IMG/VR virus record: IMGVR_UViG_3300019458_000032
Span: 12,588 to 76,587 of that record
Length of the DNA stretch: 64,000 nt
Origin: a virus
Direction: 5' to 3' (one strand)
The first letter of the stretch is position 1, and each line of letters begins with the position of its first letter. The position numbers and the translations under genes are program-made. Below, in pieces: positions 57,821 through 64,000 of this stretch. The notes under the pieces were generated by a model. It was given only the letters and a program-made list of their open reading frames with translations. It was not told the DNA's origin and searched no databases.

Positions 57821-58002
57821 AATTTCACCTTAATTTCATGTAATTTTTTAATTATTCTCAATATTAATATTGTAGGAATAAAAAATCCACCAATGAAAAA
57901 CATACATAAAACATCTAATAAACTAACAGATCTCACTTTCTTGGTTTCCCAATATGTTAAACCAATCCCAGAAATGATCCAATAGACAATTAATAATAAC
58001 AC
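57817..58002 (-). CDS. small two-TM membrane protein
   Basis: Two hydrophobic segments. Confidence 0.45.
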   Translation of the reverse strand: MLLLIVYWIISGIGLTYWETKKVRSVSLLDVLCMFFIGGFFIPTILILRIIKKLHEIKVKL

Positions 58003-58113
58003 ATCAATCCTATTAAAAAAATAATAATTGAATACATTTTAAAGTTAGGGCAACTAAAAGAATTATTAAACTCCAACCCACTATATTTTCAAATAAACCT
58101 AAAGTGTTTTTCT

Positions 58114-58326
58114 TCATAATCCACGACCTTCTACAGAATTAACAATTTCTTCAGGGGTTCTATGGCATTTAGAACATCTTAATCTATTACCCACATATTC
58201 CCATGTATGTAAAGGACATATATTATTAACTGAACTATAAACATTTGTATTTACAGGAAGAATCCAATTAAGGATAGGAACAACAATGAATATTAGAGCA
58301 ATAATAACAAGTAATCCGAATAGCAT
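58114..58326 (-). CDS. TM protein with Cys/His finger
   Basis: TM helix then CPLH-W...CSKC. Confidence 0.5.
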   Translation of the reverse strand: MLFGLLVIIALIFIVVPILNWILPVNTNVYSSVNNICPLHTWEYVGNRLRCSKCHRTPEEIVNSVEGRGL

Positions 58327-58357
58327 ATAAAGAATATACCACTCTTATAGAAACTTG

Positions 58358-58813
58358 TCAACTAGTTTTCACTTGTGTAGAAATAAATTTATAGAAATGC
58401 TTACCCTTAGAATCTGTATAATCATACTCATATATCTCTATATCAAATACAGCATGGTAGTCAAAGGGTTTATCACGATCCTGTATAGCATGATGATAAA
58501 TTGTTGTAGGAGGAAACTCATACAACCAATCTCTTAACATCGTAATAACATTATCCTTTACCAGATATAAAAGGATCTTAGAACTTTGTGTCATCGAAGA
58601 ATCATGTTTCTTCTCACCCTTTATAAACCTAAGATGCTTTCTACGCTGTTTCACTATATAAGCTTTGTATTTACAATAAAAGGATCTAATTATGACAAGA
58701 CATAGAAGAGCTATAGAACCTAAGATTATACCACCATAAAGAATAATACAGACAATATAACCTAAAGGCATGTTTCTATACTCGAATAAACGGTTTCTGG
58801 CCAGAGTTATCAA
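58358..58813 (-). CDS. hypothetical membrane protein
   Basis: TM segment; start uncertain. Confidence 0.4.
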   Translation of the reverse strand: MITLARNRLFEYRNMPLGYIVCIILYGGIILGSIALLCLVIIRSFYCKYKAYIVKQRRKHLRFIKGEKKHDSSMTQSSKILLYLVKDNVITMLRDWLYEFPPTTIYHHAIQDRDKPFDYHAVFDIEIYEYDYTDSKGKHFYKFISTQVKTS

Positions 58814-58923
58814 ATTGCATTCAATCGAGTATTCTTGGACAGAATTAACTCTTTATTTTGTTGTAAATTTATTAAATTATACGTTAATTTTTTGAATGCG
58901 AGTTAACGCCAACTCTTATATAC

Positions 58924-58933
58924 ATAGTTGTTA
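58924..58933 (-). promoter_or_regulatory. phage promoter-like motif TAACAACTAT
   Basis: Intergenic copy. Confidence 0.6.
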
Positions 58934-58937
58934 AATC

Positions 58938-59450
58938 TTAAATCAGATTTTTGAAGAATTTTTTACTCAAATCGTTTATAGCGTATATGGGAGAAATTAT
59001 TTTTAAATTATTTATTATTGAAGCAAATTCTTCAGCTTCAGGCATATTATTGAATACTCCAACCACTATATTTGTATAATATGTACTCTTCAGAGTTACA
59101 TATACAAGACTCTTCTTTATCTTAATAACAACCTTATATTTAGAAACTTGATTCTCGGCATATAGAGTATACCCCAATTCCTTGTAATATTCAACCCAAT
59201 ATTGATATTTCAATGATATATCAGATCTATCATCCTCTATTGTTTCTATAAATTCAAATTCAAGTTTATTACAATCCAATTGCATGTTTCTATAATTATG
59301 AACCCCACTACATAACATACCAATATGTCTTGTAACAGATCTTAATAAATCAATACTCCATGTAATATACAACCTCTTATCTTCTTTATTAATGAAGCAA
59401 TAAAGACCCATACGAGGTAGGTTATACAAGACTGTAAATAAGTTTACCAT
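58938..59450 (-). CDS. GIY-YIG-like nuclease domain protein (degenerate)
   Basis: GLYCFIN...LYITWS...RH...H-N...FEFIE...EY. Confidence 0.55.
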   Translation of the reverse strand: MVNLFTVLYNLPRMGLYCFINKEDKRLYITWSIDLLRSVTRHIGMLCSGVHNYRNMQLDCNKLEFEFIETIEDDRSDISLKYQYWVEYYKELGYTLYAENQVSKYKVVIKIKKSLVYVTLKSTYYTNIVVGVFNNMPEAEEFASIINNLKIISPIYAINDLSKKFFKNLI

Positions 59451-59455
59451 CTAAT

Positions 59456-59465
59456 ACAGTTGTTA
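59456..59465 (-). promoter_or_regulatory. phage promoter-like motif TAACAACTGT
   Basis: Only 5 bp from the ATG at 59450, implying a leaderless transcript. Confidence 0.6.
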
Positions 59466-59879
59466 ATAAAGCTGCATCTTACAACGCTTTACAATATCTT
59501 TAAAAATAGAAACAAATACAAAAGGTTAAATCTATTGTAAAGGTCTAATAGACAAGCTATTAGAGTTATTAGATGCAATATATTGGAGATAATAAACTAT
59601 GTTTCTATAATAAAAATCATGTAAGTATTTGTATTGACTGAGCATTAAGGGCAACACGTACTACGGTCCCTCTACCCCCCTCTACCTTATAGCTGACTCT
59701 GACGAGCTGTTTGAACAGAGGGTCGTTGATGAGTTTACTTCTTCTCTCTCTATCTCTACTATCCTATCTCTATTATCTATTCTCTTGCCTATTCTCTTGG
59801 TATACAGCATATGCTATACAGCTTAAGGGAATGGACGACAGCATTACCTAAGACCTTTTACATACATGCAAATTGCACC

Positions 59880-60000
59880 TGTCTACATTTTTGACAGTGT
59901 ATAGAAGTTTGACAGTGTAGTGATTTCACACACTTAAAGAGTTTCTGTATATTCTTTTGACAGTGGCGAACTTTTTTACAGATGTGATTTCAGCTACTTA
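59880..60000 (+). promoter_or_regulatory. duplicated enhancer-like array: 4x TGT-N11-ACA and 2x IHF-like sites
   Basis: Sites at 59880-96, 59898-914, 59946-62 and 59964-80 (last one TGG); TTTGACAGTG occurs three times; GTGATTTCA-N3-ACTTA at 59920 and 59984. Confidence 0.65.
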
Positions 60001-60004
60001 GCAC

Positions 60005-60021
60005 TTGGCACAGCGTCTGCA
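60005..60021 (+). promoter_or_regulatory. sigma-54 (-24/-12) promoter
   Basis: TTGGCACAGCGTCTGCA: GG(60007-8)-N10-GC(60019-20), close to consensus YTGGCACG-N4-TTGCW. Confidence 0.75.
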
Positions 60022-60032
60022 ATACTGGTTTG

Positions 60033-60446
60033 CAAGCGACGCAATTGTAGAACGTAGCCTCTGTCGTAGACGGCACCGCGATGTAACCAGTGCTTGTCTT
60101 GTTTCACCTAGAGGTTGTGCTTGAAGTGAGCAAGACTGTAAGTCATTGAGGGCGAGAAGCTAGTCGAAAGGTTGAGAGCTAACCTGTCTATGGCATGGGA
60201 AGAGTGAACACTCACGAGTACCATTAAGACCTAACAGCGTTAGATTAAATACCAAGTGGTCTCAATCTTATACCCTGTACTGAAGTCCTTTCGAGGATTG
60301 TATAGAAAATATGGTATTATAGCCGCTGAGAACAACGCACATGAGAACAACCCGAGCGATAAGACCCATGTCAAAGTTAGGGCTTATGTGAAATAAACTC
60401 AGTGAATTGCTATTGCTGACGTGTCTCGCGTTAGCAAGTGAATAGA
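60033..60446 (+). ncRNA. candidate large structured ncRNA/leader
   Basis: No + strand ORF of 60 aa or more, GC-enriched relative to flanks, many hairpins including a UUCG loop; bounded by the sigma-54 promoter and a hammerhead. Confidence 0.6.
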
Positions 60447-60516
60447 AGACGAAACAGGGAAATACTGTCAAAAGTATTCCCTGTAGCGTAGTTATTTCAC
60501 TACGCCTGATGAGTCT
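60447..60516 (+). ncRNA. hammerhead ribozyme, type II (HH1); predicted cleavage after GUA 60485
   Basis: AGAC-GAAA-[CAGGGAAATACT gtcaaa AGTATTCCCTG]-TA-[GCGTAG ttatttca CTACGC]-CTGATGA-GTCT. All core nucleotides and three stems present. Confidence 0.92.
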
Positions 60517-60538
60517 AATATTGTAAAGGAGAAATACA

Positions 60539-60808
60539 ATGGAAAATCAAGAGAAGTTAAATTCTATTCAAGCTCAAATTGAGGCTCTTAAAGCTGAAGC
60601 TAAAGCTTTAAAGCCGAAAAAAGAGCATACTCTCTCATTCAAAGTGAATGAGAAAGGTACAATTTCTGTATATGGATTGCAGAAATTTCCAGTGAGTTTG
60701 TATCCCACACAATGGGAAAAACTCTTTAAAACTATGCCTGAACTCATGAAGATTGTTCAGCCTTTAATTGACGCTGCTAAAGCTGCTAAAGAAGTTAAAA
60801 CAGCCTAA
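60539..60808 (+). CDS. small protein (coiled coil plus KV-EKG-ISVYGL-KFPVSLY-QW domain), flanked by two ribozymes
   Basis: AAGGAG RBS; first ORF after the sigma-54 promoter. Confidence 0.75.
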   Translation: MENQEKLNSIQAQIEALKAEAKALKPKKEHTLSFKVNEKGTISVYGLQKFPVSLYPTQWEKLFKTMPELMKIVQPLIDAAKAAKEVKTA

Positions 60809-60842
60809 TTCGACCTACCCTTCCCCTTACCCCTACCCTTAA

Positions 60843-60904
60843 GGTCGAAACGCTGTAGTGAGCCTATTACAGCGTCTGAGAGTGTATCTTTCACTGAGGA
60901 GACC
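60843..60904 (+). ncRNA. hammerhead ribozyme, type II (HH2); predicted cleavage after GUC 60876
   Basis: GGTC-GAAA-[CGCTGTAGT gagcct ATTACAGCG]-TC-[TGAGAG tgtat CTTTCA]-CTGAGGA-GACC. Confidence 0.9.
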
Positions 60905-60909
60905 ATAAG

Positions 60910-61311
60910 ATGATGACATATGATCGTGCTAGAGAGTTGTATAACTCTGCTAGAAATAAAGCTAAAGGAAAGCCTATAGGAAATAATCTTAGGCTTGTTA
61001 AAGTTTGTATGGTTGATAAGTATTACGAGCAAGAGGATGTAGTGATTACATTGCCTGTATATGGGATTGTTTATCACGACACTGTAATTGTAAAGATATA
61101 TCCTTGTGATGCACCGTTTAATGAATATAGGATATATAATGGTGGATGGTTCTCAATAACAACAAAGAAGAATATTAATAAGTTTATACCCTATACTGTT
61201 GTTCAACGAAAGGGTGAATGGTTTGTTCAAGTTGAAGGTAATCTTAAACCGTTTGTTGAAGGTTTAAAGTTGGGGATAAAATTAAATGTATTTCTGGCAC
61301 CTATTGTTTAA
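60910..61311 (+). CDS. phage hypothetical protein
   Basis: YHDT-IV...GGW-S-TTK-IN motif; SD GAGGAG lies within the HH2 core. Confidence 0.7.
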   Translation: MMTYDRARELYNSARNKAKGKPIGNNLRLVKVCMVDKYYEQEDVVITLPVYGIVYHDTVIVKIYPCDAPFNEYRIYNGGWFSITTKKNINKFIPYTVVQRKGEWFVQVEGNLKPFVEGLKLGIKLNVFLAPIV

Positions 61312-61484
61312 CTAATAGCGAAACTTACTCAGTTAGAGATATTAATAAACAACTAATTAAAATAAGATGTGATGATGGGTGTTTCGACTGGTTTAATATA
61401 AAAAGATTCATTAAAGTAAATGAATCATTAACAGAATCAGATATGTTAGACAATATACAACGCAATGTAAAGGATGATGTATGA
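61260..61484 (+). CDS. start-less ORF, paralogue of 63640-63909, possibly reached by -1 frameshift
   Basis: RFKVGDKIKC...LTESDMLDNIQRNVKDDV*; ends in an ATGA overlap with 61481; no ATG/GTG/TTG near its 5' end. Confidence 0.6.
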   Translation, partial: RFKVGDKIKCISGTYCLTNSETYSVRDINKQLIKIRCDDGCFDWFNIKRFIKVNESLTESDMLDNIQRNVKDDV

Positions 61485-61690
61485 TAACAGTAAAACTTAA
61501 TGATGTTGCTTATCTATCGCGTATCACTACTATTGATAGATATGGTAAGGAAAAATGTGGACCCTTAATTCACACCTTCACAAAGTCTATGGCTAATGTT
61601 TATAGAGATGAGTTTGAAGCAATGAAAGATGTACAGACCTTTAAGAATTGGGTTAAGAAAGAATTTAAATTTGAATTAATTAAGGGGTAG
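61481..61690 (+). CDS. hypothetical protein
   Basis: AAGGA RBS; packed ORF. Confidence 0.55.
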   Translation: MITVKLNDVAYLSRITTIDRYGKEKCGPLIHTFTKSMANVYRDEFEAMKDVQTFKNWVKKEFKFELIKG

Positions 61691-61694
61691 TAAT

Positions 61695-62474
61695 ATGAGT
61701 TGCAAAGTATATAGCTTAGATGTATTCCGTCGAACAAAGAATAAACAATCATCCCTTATAACTTTAGCATCTAATAATATAGTTAACAATACAGACTTTA
61801 ACTTTCAATCTATTATAGATATGTTATCATCTAGATTTGGCAACGATCAACCCGAAGGTGGAGTTATATACAATGACCCGGTAGAAGAAAATTATATTGA
61901 TGCTTATGGTAGAGGTTGTATTCATAATTCTATATTTCAATACCACCCTAAAGAAGGTTCAAACGAACCTTGGAATAGACCAATGCCATTTCCTAGTGAT
62001 ATAAATAAGATATATAAAGCCATTGAAAAGAATAAGGGTAAGACAATGTACTTAGGGTATAAGTCAGACCCTCTTATGTGGATGGATGATAGGTATAAGA
62101 TAACAAAAGAAATTATAAGATATGCAACATTATACAATGTTATTCTCATCATTAATACAATGAGTGATCTATGTGCTTATGATGATTACATTCACTTAAT
62201 AAAAGAAGGTAAACATATTATTAATATGAACATGAGCTTGAATGATGGGAATGAAGAATTAGAACGACGTCTAAGCCCTGGTGCTCCAAGTTTATTACGT
62301 CGTAATAAAGCAATTGAGAAGTTAAGAGTTAATGGTGTTGAAGTTACAATACAAGAGTTTAAAACAATTGAAATAAAGCATAAGCGATTTGCATTAGCTA
62401 TGGGTGGTAATGTTGGAGATGTCATTAAGAGTGGAGATAAGAATATTATATCCTCTATAACGCAATGGAACTAG
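61695..62474 (+). CDS. degenerate radical-SAM (SplB/Rv2578c-like) protein lacking CxxxCxxC
   Basis: DAYGRGCIHNSIFQY; G-KSDP; KITK; NT-SDL; LSPGAPS--RR-KAIEKL---GV-V. Confidence 0.6.
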   Translation: MSCKVYSLDVFRRTKNKQSSLITLASNNIVNNTDFNFQSIIDMLSSRFGNDQPEGGVIYNDPVEENYIDAYGRGCIHNSIFQYHPKEGSNEPWNRPMPFPSDINKIYKAIEKNKGKTMYLGYKSDPLMWMDDRYKITKEIIRYATLYNVILIINTMSDLCAYDDYIHLIKEGKHIINMNMSLNDGNEELERRLSPGAPSLLRRNKAIEKLRVNGVEVTIQEFKTIEIKHKRFALAMGGNVGDVIKSGDKNIISSITQWN

Positions 62475-62520
62475 AGTTCTAGTCCCTAGCGTTTAAGGTG
62501 TGTAAGAGTTAGGAGAGATT

Positions 62521-62865
62521 ATGAAAAAAGATGTAGCAATGAAGTGGGTTAAAGCATTAAGATCGGGTAAATATAAACAAGCAAAGGAAAGCCTTCAAAA
62601 TCAAAATGAAAATGGTTATTGTTGTTTAGGTGTATTATGTAAGATTGCTGAAAAAGAAAATATTCCAATTAGATACGACGAACAATCCATTTATAGATTA
62701 TTTGGTGAAACTTTGTTCCACCAATTTGCAGTTCAACAATGGTCTGAATTAAAATCAACAGAAGGTAATTTTAATAAACATAGATCGCTAGTTTATTTAA
62801 ATGATAATGGAAAATCATTTAAATATATTGCTAATGTAATTGAAAAACATTGGAGAAAATTATGA
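62521..62865 (+). CDS. phage hypothetical protein
   Basis: WVKALRSGKYKQ...YCCLGVLC...LND-G-SF-IA-IE pattern; AGGAG RBS. Confidence 0.7.
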   Translation: MKKDVAMKWVKALRSGKYKQAKESLQNQNENGYCCLGVLCKIAEKENIPIRYDEQSIYRLFGETLFHQFAVQQWSELKSTEGNFNKHRSLVYLNDNGKSFKYIANVIEKHWRKL

Positions 62866-62969
62866 ATTATAAAGATTATCATGATAAAAAACAAAAGATC
62901 AATAAAGAGATTTTACAAATTGTTTTAATAATTATATTAAGTTTGATAGTGGGGTTCTTTATAAAATAA
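62862..62969 (+). CDS. 35-aa single-TM peptide
   Basis: ATGA overlap; MNYKDYHDKKQKINKEILQIVLIIILSLIVGFFIK. Confidence 0.5.
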   Translation: MNYKDYHDKKQKINKEILQIVLIIILSLIVGFFIK

Positions 62970-62979
62970 GGAGAATAAT

Positions 62980-63144
62980 ATGTTTCATATATACGATGGA
63001 AAGTTTAAAATTACAAGTGACCCAATCTCCTTCAATTGGCTGCAAAAGATGTTTACAAATGCTGGAATAAACTGGTCATTAGTTAACACACTTCCACATG
63101 GATCAATGGTTATGTATAAGACATTTAAGATTGTGAGGGTATAA
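62980..63144 (+). CDS. 54-aa hypothetical protein
   Basis: AAGGAG RBS; TAATG coupling to next gene. Confidence 0.55.
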   Translation: MFHIYDGKFKITSDPISFNWLQKMFTNAGINWSLVNTLPHGSMVMYKTFKIVRV

Positions 63145-63266
63145 TGAGTTGTTCTGAATTCTATTGCAATGATTGTGGATATCAAGATTATAATTGTCAT
63201 GATCATAAAGAATGCCCTAATTGTGATTCTGTTAATACGGAATATCAAGCTGAATTAGAGCCGTGA
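63144..63266 (+). CDS. 40-aa Zn-ribbon peptide
   Basis: CNDCG...CPNCDS. Confidence 0.55.
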   Translation: MSCSEFYCNDCGYQDYNCHDHKECPNCDSVNTEYQAELEP

Positions 63267-63319
63267 TAAAGAGATAAGTCCCGAAGGAATAATGTATTAT
63301 TTTTATAGGGGAGATTTTT

Positions 63320-63640
63320 ATGAAGTCGAAGTGGCTAAGTAAAATTAGGTCTGAAATATGGTGTACTTTAGAAGAATTTAAAGATGGTTCTATGAAAATT
63401 ATAGATGCATGGCATCCGCAAGTAAAAGATATTTCTTATTTAAATTTAGATGAATTCTTAAAATTAAATGCCCATCTTAGAGTTTATCAAGATATAACAT
63501 TCAAAGATCATCTATTGAATACATACACAAACATTAATAAACTTAATGACAATATATGTAAGCATGAATATAAATCTTATAGAGGATTTACAGATAACTA
63601 TGAGTTTTGTATACATTGTGATAACAAAAGGAATTTATAA
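63320..63640 (+). CDS. hypothetical protein with C-terminal C-H/CxxC finger
   Basis: GGGGAG RBS; CKHEY...CIHCD. Confidence 0.6.
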   Translation: MKSKWLSKIRSEIWCTLEEFKDGSMKIIDAWHPQVKDISYLNLDEFLKLNAHLRVYQDITFKDHLLNTYTNINKLNDNICKHEYKSYRGFTDNYEFCIHCDNKRNL

Positions 63641-63909
63641 TGGAATATAAACCTGGAGATAGAGTTATTATTATAAAAGATAACCCTAATATAGGAATAT
63701 GTAAAGATGATAAAAAAAACCCCTTCATTATAGGTAAAAAATTTACACTTCGTTCTATTTTCTATAAAGACAGCATTAGAAATTTTACAGGTTGGCATCT
63801 TCATGGGACTGACTGGTGGATTGACGATGGATCTTTTAAATTAGCTGGACCATTAACAGAATCTGATTACCTGGATAATATACAAAGGAATATAGCCGAT
63901 GATTTATAA
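63640..63909 (+). CDS. hypothetical protein (YKPGDRV N-terminus), paralogue of 61260-61484
   Basis: Shared C-terminus LTESD-LDNIQRN--DD. Confidence 0.65.
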   Translation: MEYKPGDRVIIIKDNPNIGICKDDKKNPFIIGKKFTLRSIFYKDSIRNFTGWHLHGTDWWIDDGSFKLAGPLTESDYLDNIQRNIADDL

Positions 63910-64000
63910 AAAGTTAGGAGGATTATATGTTTAAATAGTGGTAGTTATAAATTTCCCAGAAGGAATATAGCCGATGATTTATAAAAAGTTAGGAGGATTA
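63885..64000. repeat. direct repeat of at least 41 bp with 75-bp period
   Basis: AAGGAATATAGCCGATGATTTATAAAAAGTTAGGAGGATTA at 63885-63925 and 63960-64000 (second copy runs to the window edge). Confidence 0.85.

Follow-up and report, generated by a model that had tools for sequence, protein, structure and literature searches.

A type II hammerhead ribozyme in a cave phage genome whose catalytic core appears to double as the Shine-Dalgarno sequence of the downstream gene

An uncultured cave phage carries a complete, canonical type II hammerhead ribozyme (HH2, 60838-60909) between two of its small early genes, here called gene 1 and gene 2, and it is well supported by the sequence that its catalytic core doubles as the Shine-Dalgarno (SD) sequence of gene 2. 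The 3' half of the ribozyme, comprising the core strand from C3 to A9 and the 3' strand of stem II, is best explained as the whole translation initiation region of this gene. As for the use that the phage makes of this arrangement, we lean towards mRNA processing and insulation as the main role of HH2, with the ribosome-binding site (RBS) built into the ribozyme for compactness, and with the control of translation by cleavage as a secondary and unproven effect.

The source is an IMG/VR viral record of 76,587 bp (linear, 33% GC, CheckV completeness of 88%), of which bases 12588-76587 form the window, that is, the whole stretch of 64,000 nucleotides analysed here and to which our coordinates refer. 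The stretch is present in two cave-metagenome DNA runs, with no RNA run listed among those containing it, and family scans identified a family B DNA polymerase as well as head and tail genes in the phage genome. A second strain found in the cave DNA runs has 5 SNPs in 2 kb, none of them in HH1 (the upstream hammerhead described below) or HH2, a number too small to be informative. No close relative was returned by megablast of 58000-64000 against a phage collection, and none by locus searches with single proteins (gene 1, gene 2 and a 114-aa ORF); the sole match in a word-based protein search was the query itself, and the contigs with related DNA polymerases were too short to extend into the hammerhead region.

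HH2 is preceded on the same strand, 327 nt upstream, by a hammerhead of the same architecture (HH1), for which the minimum free energy (MFE) structure given by RNAfold is also the hammerhead fold (-27.1 kcal/mol, z = -5.3). HH1 has a U at position 7 and is followed by its own separate SD, AAGGAG (60527-32), and, after a 7-nt spacing, by ATG 60539, the start of gene 1, for which neither Pfam nor PHROG gave a match. Gene 2 belongs to a family with 415 homologues at E<=1e-3, and for that reason a minus-strand ORF overlapping HH2 (60805-61077) was judged spurious. No promoter-like or terminator-like site was detected on the plus strand of 60000-61300, and none separates HH1, gene 1, HH2 and gene 2. 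The features of the region are listed in Table 1.

Table 1. Positions in the window of the two hammerheads, their parts and the neighbouring genes
Feature	Position	Strand	Basis
HH1, type II hammerhead in the gene 1 leader; core CUGAUGA, GUA cleavage triplet, predicted cut after A60485	60447-60516	+	descriptor and fold
Gene 1, 89-aa ORF with a hammerhead on either side; stop TAA 60806-08	60539-60808	+	ORF list
Anti-ribozyme strand UUCGACCU; begins 1 nt past the gene 1 stop codon	60809-60816	+	exact complement of 60842-60849
C/U-rich tract, 25 nt, loop of the anti-ribozyme hairpin; last 4 nt CUUA (60838-41) can extend stem II instead	60817-60841	+	sequence, folds
HH2 stem II, 5' strand: CUUA, mismatched A, GGUC; C11.1 = 60846	60838-60846	+	MFE fold
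HH2 core G12 A13 A14 plus A15.1 (GAAA)	60847-60850	+	sequence
HH2 stem III hairpin, 11 bp, loop 60861-64, closed by A15.1-U16.1	60850-60875	+	MFE fold
HH2 C17, predicted cleavage site GUC/U	60876	+	position within motif
HH2 stem I hairpin, 6 bp, UGAGAG/CUUUCA, loop UGUAU	60877-60893	+	MFE folds of whole motif and of 3' product
HH2 core strand C3 U4 G5 A6 G7 G8 A9 (CUGAGGA)	60894-60900	+	sequence
GAGGAG, SD of gene 2, G5 to G10.1 of HH2; G7 = 60898	60896-60901	+	sequence, 8-nt spacing
HH2 stem II, 3' strand: GACC, mismatched A, UAAG; doubles as SD-to-AUG spacer, ends 1 nt short of the start codon	60901-60909	+	MFE fold
Gene 2, 133 aa, widespread small phage protein family	60910-61311	+	weak matches to phrog_554 and Pfam Kyano_Gp96

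The MFE structure of HH2 (RNAfold, 60838-60909) is exactly the three-way hammerhead junction, with a free energy of -24.2 kcal/mol (z = -3.2), and since stems I and III are capped by loops while stem II is open, its topology is that of the type II permutation. The core strand conforms to C3 U4 G5 A6 N7 G8 A9, in which position 7 is the sole free position; G12, A13 and A14 are in place, A60850 and U60875 form the A15.1-U16.1 pair, and position 17, which must not be G, is occupied by C60876, completing the GUC triplet. In stem II, GGTC (60843-46) is paired with GACC (60901-04), and the closing pair G10.1-C11.1 (G60901-C60846) is GC in 5/5 related hammerheads. In most type II hammerheads, loop I and the 3' tail are joined by a pseudoknot of 4 bp or more (PMC3088659), whereas in HH2 the complement between these elements is only 3 bp, AUA (60905-07) with UAU (60885-87), so that fast cleavage at physiological Mg2+ is not assured. 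An alternative to this contact is a stem II extended across an A·A mismatch at 10.5/11.5, an arrangement present in 4/5 related hammerheads.

An earlier note on this DNA had pointed out that the CUGAGGA core creates GAGGAG at 60896-60901, 8 nt before ATG 60910, and that the extra G is supplied by the variable position N7. Both statements were borne out: the coordinates are exact, the spacer being 60902-60909 and the gene opening with ATG ATG, and G7 is predicted to provide almost all of the SD strength, because the computed duplex with a generic anti-SD amounts to -9.2 kcal/mol with G7 and to -2.7 with U7. With the same generic anti-SD, the AAGGAG of gene 1 reaches -8.7 kcal/mol. The note had also named the use of a different start or RBS as a point to be checked. 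The start codon proved sound, because the N-termini of 35 aligned homologues coincide with M60910/M60913 (pattern M(M/L)TY...ARNKxKGKP), and no other SD candidate or purine run is found between the HH2 core and the ATG. In this genome, the first start of approximately 52% of the long ORFs is preceded by an SD of 4 nt or more, compared with 10% for random positions, and the spacing peaks at 6-9 nt. GAGGAG thus has the properties of an SD site, namely complementarity, a spacing of 5-10 nt, a genuine start codon and a genome in which SDs are used. The C/U-rich tract upstream was considered as an anti-SD mimic and discarded, as inspection found no pairing with the SD longer than 4 bp; RNAfold pairs only CCU (60804-06) with AGG.

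With the gene 2 homologue alignment, 80 viral and 80 metagenome loci were retrieved, and among the approximately 160 gene 2-family loci scanned hammerheads were present in one, the closest (L237, the same as L318 and part of contig L317; 38% identity), the remaining loci having ordinary SDs. L237 contains three hammerheads (HH-a, HH-b and HH-c). The one directly before the gene 2 homologue, HH-a, reads GUCGAAAC ... CUGAGGAGAC, followed by 6 nt and the AUG; its inner stem II pairs, its G7 and its SD geometry are the same as in HH2, and its stems I and III, the latter with a long insertion, are wholly different in sequence yet paired. HH-b repeats the layout of HH1, with U7, a separate AAGGAG and an ATG 26 nt past G10.1, while HH-c has U7 and three G's opening stem II, which give GAGGG 7 nt before the ATG. 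When HH1, HH2 and the three hammerheads of L237 are compared, five sequences from two phages only, the core is invariant and 2-4 pair types occur at nearly every stem position.

The two phages also have in common a block of 39 nt in the promoter region (60005-43, matching L237 830-866), and in both of them a leader without ORFs and richer in GC comes next, with a hammerhead at its end. The shared cassette of HH2 and HH-a, together with the block, the leader and the hammerhead, suggests that the ribozyme travels with its downstream gene. Conservation of the G7 cassette is seen in this one relative, and in this lineage G7 goes with the missing separate SD in 2/2 cases against 0/3, a comparison of few sequences in which HH2 and HH-a count as one event. 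Gene 1 has no BLASTP or HMMER similarity to the hammerhead-flanked ORF of L237, and therefore that ORF can be called gene 1-like by position only.

What we infer for HH2 is cleavage with its characteristic RNA ends, release of the product, and mutual exclusion between the folded ribozyme and the ribosome. According to the processing and insulation role that we favour, a transcript from a promoter near 60005 would comprise a leader of approximately 410 nt, HH1, gene 1, HH2 and gene 2, and folded HH2 would cut it after C60876. A hammerhead cut generates a 2',3'-cyclic phosphate at the end of the upstream RNA and gives the downstream RNA a 5'-OH. The upstream RNA would thus end in the 11-bp stem III hairpin and a cyclic phosphate, and the gene 2 mRNA would begin with the 5'-OH of U60877 and carry the stem I hairpin at its 5' end, the SD 19 nt from that end and the AUG at nt 34. 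At this point the products would be joined by stem II alone, and UUCGACCU, located in the upstream product, could capture the 5' strand of stem II, favouring release and freeing the SD. The predicted folds agree with this step, given that the 5' product refolds into a helix of 60809-16 with 60842-49 and no longer holds the 3' product, in which the probability of being unpaired is 0.76 for the SD and 0.73 for the spacer. Uncut RNA in the alternative fold described below and cut RNA would both be translatable, and each gene would receive a defined, hairpin-capped mRNA of its own. Products with a 5'-OH can be destabilised where the host has RNase J1, glmS being an example, so a stabilising effect of such ends is not assured.

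The competing structure is formed by AGGUCGAA (60842-49), which comprises the 5' strand of stem II and G12-A14 and pairs over 8 bp with UUCGACCU. When this upstream strand is included in the folding (60800-60912), the alternative hairpin becomes the MFE structure (-29.0 vs -24.2 kcal/mol) and takes 99% of the modelled ensemble (pair probability of 0.99; ensemble free-energy difference of 3.0 kcal/mol), leaving stem II of HH2 with a probability of 0.005. The ribozyme is disabled in this fold, in which the SD and the spacer are unpaired with probabilities of 0.66 and 0.74; in the hammerhead fold, 60901-09 is paired and the corresponding value for the spacer is 0.14. The weight of these figures as an argument against ribozyme activity is reduced by the fact that 70% of 115 bona fide hammerheads also have a stem II probability below 0.05 in context, and a low value in context therefore says little, the model undervaluing the junction. 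An 8-bp helix of this kind has a chance frequency of about 1e-3 (17/20,000 random genomic 29-mers and 29/20,000 shuffles) and is the sole case among 120 hammerheads, where about 0 were expected. It was rejected as a general or conserved feature of hammerheads, since the helix lengths in the 120 match those of shuffles, HH2 excepted, and a 5-bp helix (UUCGG/CCGAA) upstream of HH-c in L237 is within chance.

The helix could nevertheless couple the ribozyme to translation, if it keeps HH2 off until a ribosome terminating at 60806-08 melts it, in which case HH2 would cut only when gene 1 is translated and the same strand would then drive product release. Besides the rarity of this perfect helix and its position 1 nt past the stop codon, such coupling would agree with the result of masking 60806-22, as a terminating ribosome would do, which makes the hammerhead fold the MFE structure again. 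The lack of enrichment of such helices among type II hammerheads, to which the helix of HH-c brings no exception, argues against it, as does the possibility that the helix serves product release only, and we find this reading rather doubtful.

A second reading, put forward in the earlier note, is a switch gated by cleavage, in which the uncut fold locks the SD and the spacer, cleavage and release start the translation of gene 2, and ribosome loading blocks cleavage. In the established hammerhead structure, G5, A6, G8 and A9 take part in the folded core. HH2 folding and 30S binding would thus be mutually exclusive, because both use the same nucleotides, and the claim that the folded ribozyme occludes the RBS stands to the extent that this fold makes core residues of the SD and pairs 60901-09 up to position -1 of the AUG. 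It does not extend to the RNA as a whole, because with 60809-16 present the dominant predicted uncut conformer has a disabled ribozyme and a free SD, and no stable OFF state is predicted. The further claim that cleavage turns translation on retains the exclusion between folding and 30S binding, and it could draw on products held together by the 4+4-bp stem II alone (duplex energy of -8.4 kcal/mol) and on the conservation of the layout in L237, but the alternative fold exposes the SD without cleavage, and the SD would be no less accessible in an RNA whose ribozyme never folded. Moreover, an active natural hammerhead would stay uncut only briefly, which amounts to a delay and not to a switch. 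Engineered hammerheads that free an RBS do work in bacteria (PMC12192606), but no sensor or ligand domain is evident at HH2. We consider a switch of this type unlikely as the role of HH2, which may act in a switch-like manner transiently.

HH2 could also be a natural riboregulator with three states that links the two cistrons: termination at the end of gene 1 would melt the helix, the SD-bearing hammerhead would fold and cut, and the freed strand would displace stem II, so that a monocistronic mRNA of gene 2 would be released with its SD open. We offer this only as a speculative scheme with little probability in its favour; if true, the second gene would be licensed for processing and for independent translation by the translation of the first, and phage hammerheads would have a definite regulatory function.

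A strict type II descriptor had two matches in the 76.6-kb genome, HH1 and HH2 alone, and no match on either strand of 300 random first-order Markov genomes. The Rfam model RF02276 (Hammerhead_II), by contrast, left HH1 and HH2 unscored even at E<=10, in scans covering the window at the gathering threshold, slices of 1.8 kb and 91 nt at E<=10, and the genome with RF02276 itself. The gathering threshold of this model, 37 bits, serves as a test of detection and not as a defining property. RF02276 also misses the descriptor-canonical type II arrays of contigs L168, L148, L106, L007 and L004 and most of that of L130, and recognises a GC-rich pseudoknotted subtype (L200, parts of L122 and L130); for this reason, the missing Rfam match is treated as low sensitivity of the model and not as absence of the motif. 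That HH2 has no or negligible cleavage, being a leftover structured ribosome-binding element or a chance resemblance, would suit this missing match, the lack of a clear tertiary interaction joining stem I to stem II and the competition from the 8-bp helix, but it is very improbable in view of the canonical state of all invariant core positions, G10.1-C11.1, A15.1-U16.1 and GUC, of the silence of the descriptor in random genomes, of a second canonical hammerhead just upstream, and of stems that covary between HH2 and HH-a around a fixed core.

The role of the thousands of bacterial and phage hammerheads has been a question since 2011 and was still called undefined in a 2019 review (PMC6765202). 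Clustered prophage hammerheads were proposed to turn long transcripts into mRNAs for single genes (Perreault et al. 2011; PMC3088659), in a paper in which the words "ribosome" and "translation" have 0 occurrences each and the RBS is not mentioned. HH2 resembles those clusters in its core, its type II topology, its intergenic position on the coding strand, the bracketing of a small gene by two ribozymes and the proposed cutting of a polycistron, and it differs from them in that its core supplies the SD through G7, its stem II reaches the start codon, a pseudoknot between loop I and the 3' tail is not evident, and it is unscored by Rfam. In our literature search, with most subscription journals outside its scope, no description of an SD within a natural hammerhead core was found. 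An RBS inside the core and an unusual competing helix beside a stop codon make the question of hammerhead function directly testable with few mutants.

Among synthetic parts, the closest analogue is RiboJ (sTRSV hammerhead plus hairpin; PMC6206723), in which the cut likewise removes the upstream context and leaves a short leader with a hairpin and a 5'-OH before the RBS. This layout is matched closely by HH1 and in compact form by HH2, although RiboJ is synthetic, of type III and followed by a separate RBS, whereas HH2 is a natural type II hammerhead with the RBS inside the ribozyme. The engineered hammerhead/RBS switches (PMC12192606) are similar to HH2 in having a hammerhead directly before the start codon, a link between structure and RBS accessibility, and an RBS that is freed by cleavage. 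In those constructs, however, the RBS is paired with an added anti-RBS stem extension and an aptamer is attached, while at HH2 the SD is the catalytic core itself, a ligand domain is lacking, and the SD is open instead of closed in the predicted inactive conformer. The earlier note saw in HH2 a natural counterpart of engineered switches; HH2 does not correspond to a switch of the aptazyme type, as it has no aptamer-like domain and its SD is free in the dominant uncut fold that is predicted. As a layout, the HH2 type may be seen as a natural equivalent of RiboJ, of RBS-releasing aptazymes and of similar synthetic parts.

Natural ribozymes of other kinds offer looser parallels. Those in RNA viruses that infect fungi and plants (PMC13725137) are also small, fill an intergenic region or 5' UTR, cut a few nucleotides before a start codon and are linked to the translation of the downstream ORF; unlike HH2, they are eukaryotic, cap-independent, IRES-like, mostly of type I, carried by RNA genomes and without SD pairing. 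The glmS ribozyme of Gram-positive 5' UTRs is likewise a self-cleaving leader RNA whose cut alters the fate of the downstream mRNA, but it has a different fold and needs GlcN6P. Its cleavage lowers expression through RNase J1, and at HH2 neither a cofactor nor destabilisation is indicated.

In order to place HH2 in a wider sample, viral contigs were scanned twice with a pattern in which CGAAAC is followed after 25-55 nt by CTGA[G or T]GAG and this, after a further 4-10 nt, by ATG. Among the matches listed, compact G7 forms with real ORFs recur in unrelated contigs (L004, L007, L097, L106, L062, L066 and L070), compact forms with U7 and G10.2, which give GAGG, also precede real ORFs (L130, L132, L148 and L228), and some high-GC compact hammerheads have no SD at all. 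It is defensible to derive from these forms a design rule by which the invariant G8-A9-G10.1 becomes an SD when N7 or position 10.2 is G, a rule that would explain how about 70 nt can accommodate both a ribozyme and an initiation region in phages. Among the matches listed, only 19/50 of the U7 "compact" ones have an ORF of 40 codons or more starting at the ATG. Enrichment of G7 next to start codons was not shown among the matches listed, and the G7:U7 ratio is not normalisable, because ordinary gene starts also have the form CTGAGGAG...ATG. The expectation that homologues keep N7=G only when a start codon follows, also raised in the earlier note, fails as a general rule, given the U7 compact forms with real ORFs and one G7 hammerhead with a separate SD and a distance of 25 nt to the start; what holds is that the sole hammerhead-bearing orthologous cassette keeps G7, with its start codon 6 nt downstream. 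At the loci of the matches listed there were also about 64 bystander type II hammerheads outside the pattern, with N7 being U in 46, C in 11, A in 5 and G in about 2; in most of them the distance to a start codon is 11-30 nt, and an ordinary SD directly follows the ribozyme. A position immediately upstream of the initiation region is therefore the common arrangement of phage type II hammerheads in this sample, of which HH1 is typical.

In four of the five related hammerheads, stem II carries an A on both strands at position 10.5/11.5, following a stem of 3-4 bp; the two A's may provide loop I with a conserved contact in an internal loop, replacing the usual pseudoknot. All three hammerheads of L237, the phage contig with the closest relative of gene 2, have structured insertions of 60-80 nt in stem III, and their length is about 110-119 nt, versus 62-70 nt for those of the window.

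Coordinates of the features discussed
Feature	Sequence	Positions
A/A at stem II 10.5/11.5	Window	60842/60905
A/A at stem II 10.5/11.5	Window	60446/60517
A/A at stem II 10.5/11.5	L237 HH-a	
A/A at stem II 10.5/11.5	L237 HH-b	
Hammerhead with stem III insertion	L237	1383-1499
Hammerhead with stem III insertion	L237	2683-2792
Hammerhead with stem III insertion	L237	3173-3289
C/U-rich tract	Window	60817-60841
39-nt shared block	Window	60005-60043
39-nt shared block	L237	830-866
JA01 match	Window	60538-60673
Repeated 25-nt string	Window	63901-63925; 63976-64000

A comparison of the two phages revealed 82% identity over the 39-nt block, 3' of which both have a GC-richer leader of 410-520 nt, devoid of ORFs, with a type II hammerhead at its end; neither leader matched any Rfam family. 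The window copy of this block had been proposed as a candidate sigma-54-type promoter in the first, sequence-only reading. Closer to gene 2, and unlike the genome at large with its 33% GC, 25 nt are rich in C and U (ACCCUUCCCCUUACCCCUACCCUUA); this tract is predicted to form the loop of the anti-ribozyme hairpin, which would compete with the fold of HH2, the hammerhead preceding that gene. Neither a partner nor a role in protein binding was found for the tract.

A family of high-GC type II hammerheads, present in six other viral contigs (L142, L144, L150, L186, L196, and L211), ends at its 3' side in ...CUGAUGAGCAGCCACCC, immediately followed by an ATG that starts ORFs of 92-200 codons. No SD-like sequence is present at these starts, and initiation must occur by some other means. 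The Rfam Hammerhead_II model (RF02276) picked up the GC-rich pseudoknotted subtype (L200) and missed entire arrays of descriptor-canonical type II hammerheads in the viral contigs L168 (nine hammerheads), L148, L106, L007, and L004; the current model probably under-counts phage hammerheads.

Within gene 1, cmscan gave a weak match to the Aggregatibacter sRNA JA01 (E = 0.006; 31.9 bits versus a gathering score of 111), most likely a chance hit to AT-rich coding sequence. The 25-nt string GATTTATAAAAAGTTAGGAGGATTA, which contains a strong SD, occurs twice in the final 100 bases of the contig, 75 nt apart and with the second copy at its extreme end; this may reflect repetition of a gene-start cassette or an edge effect of the assembly.
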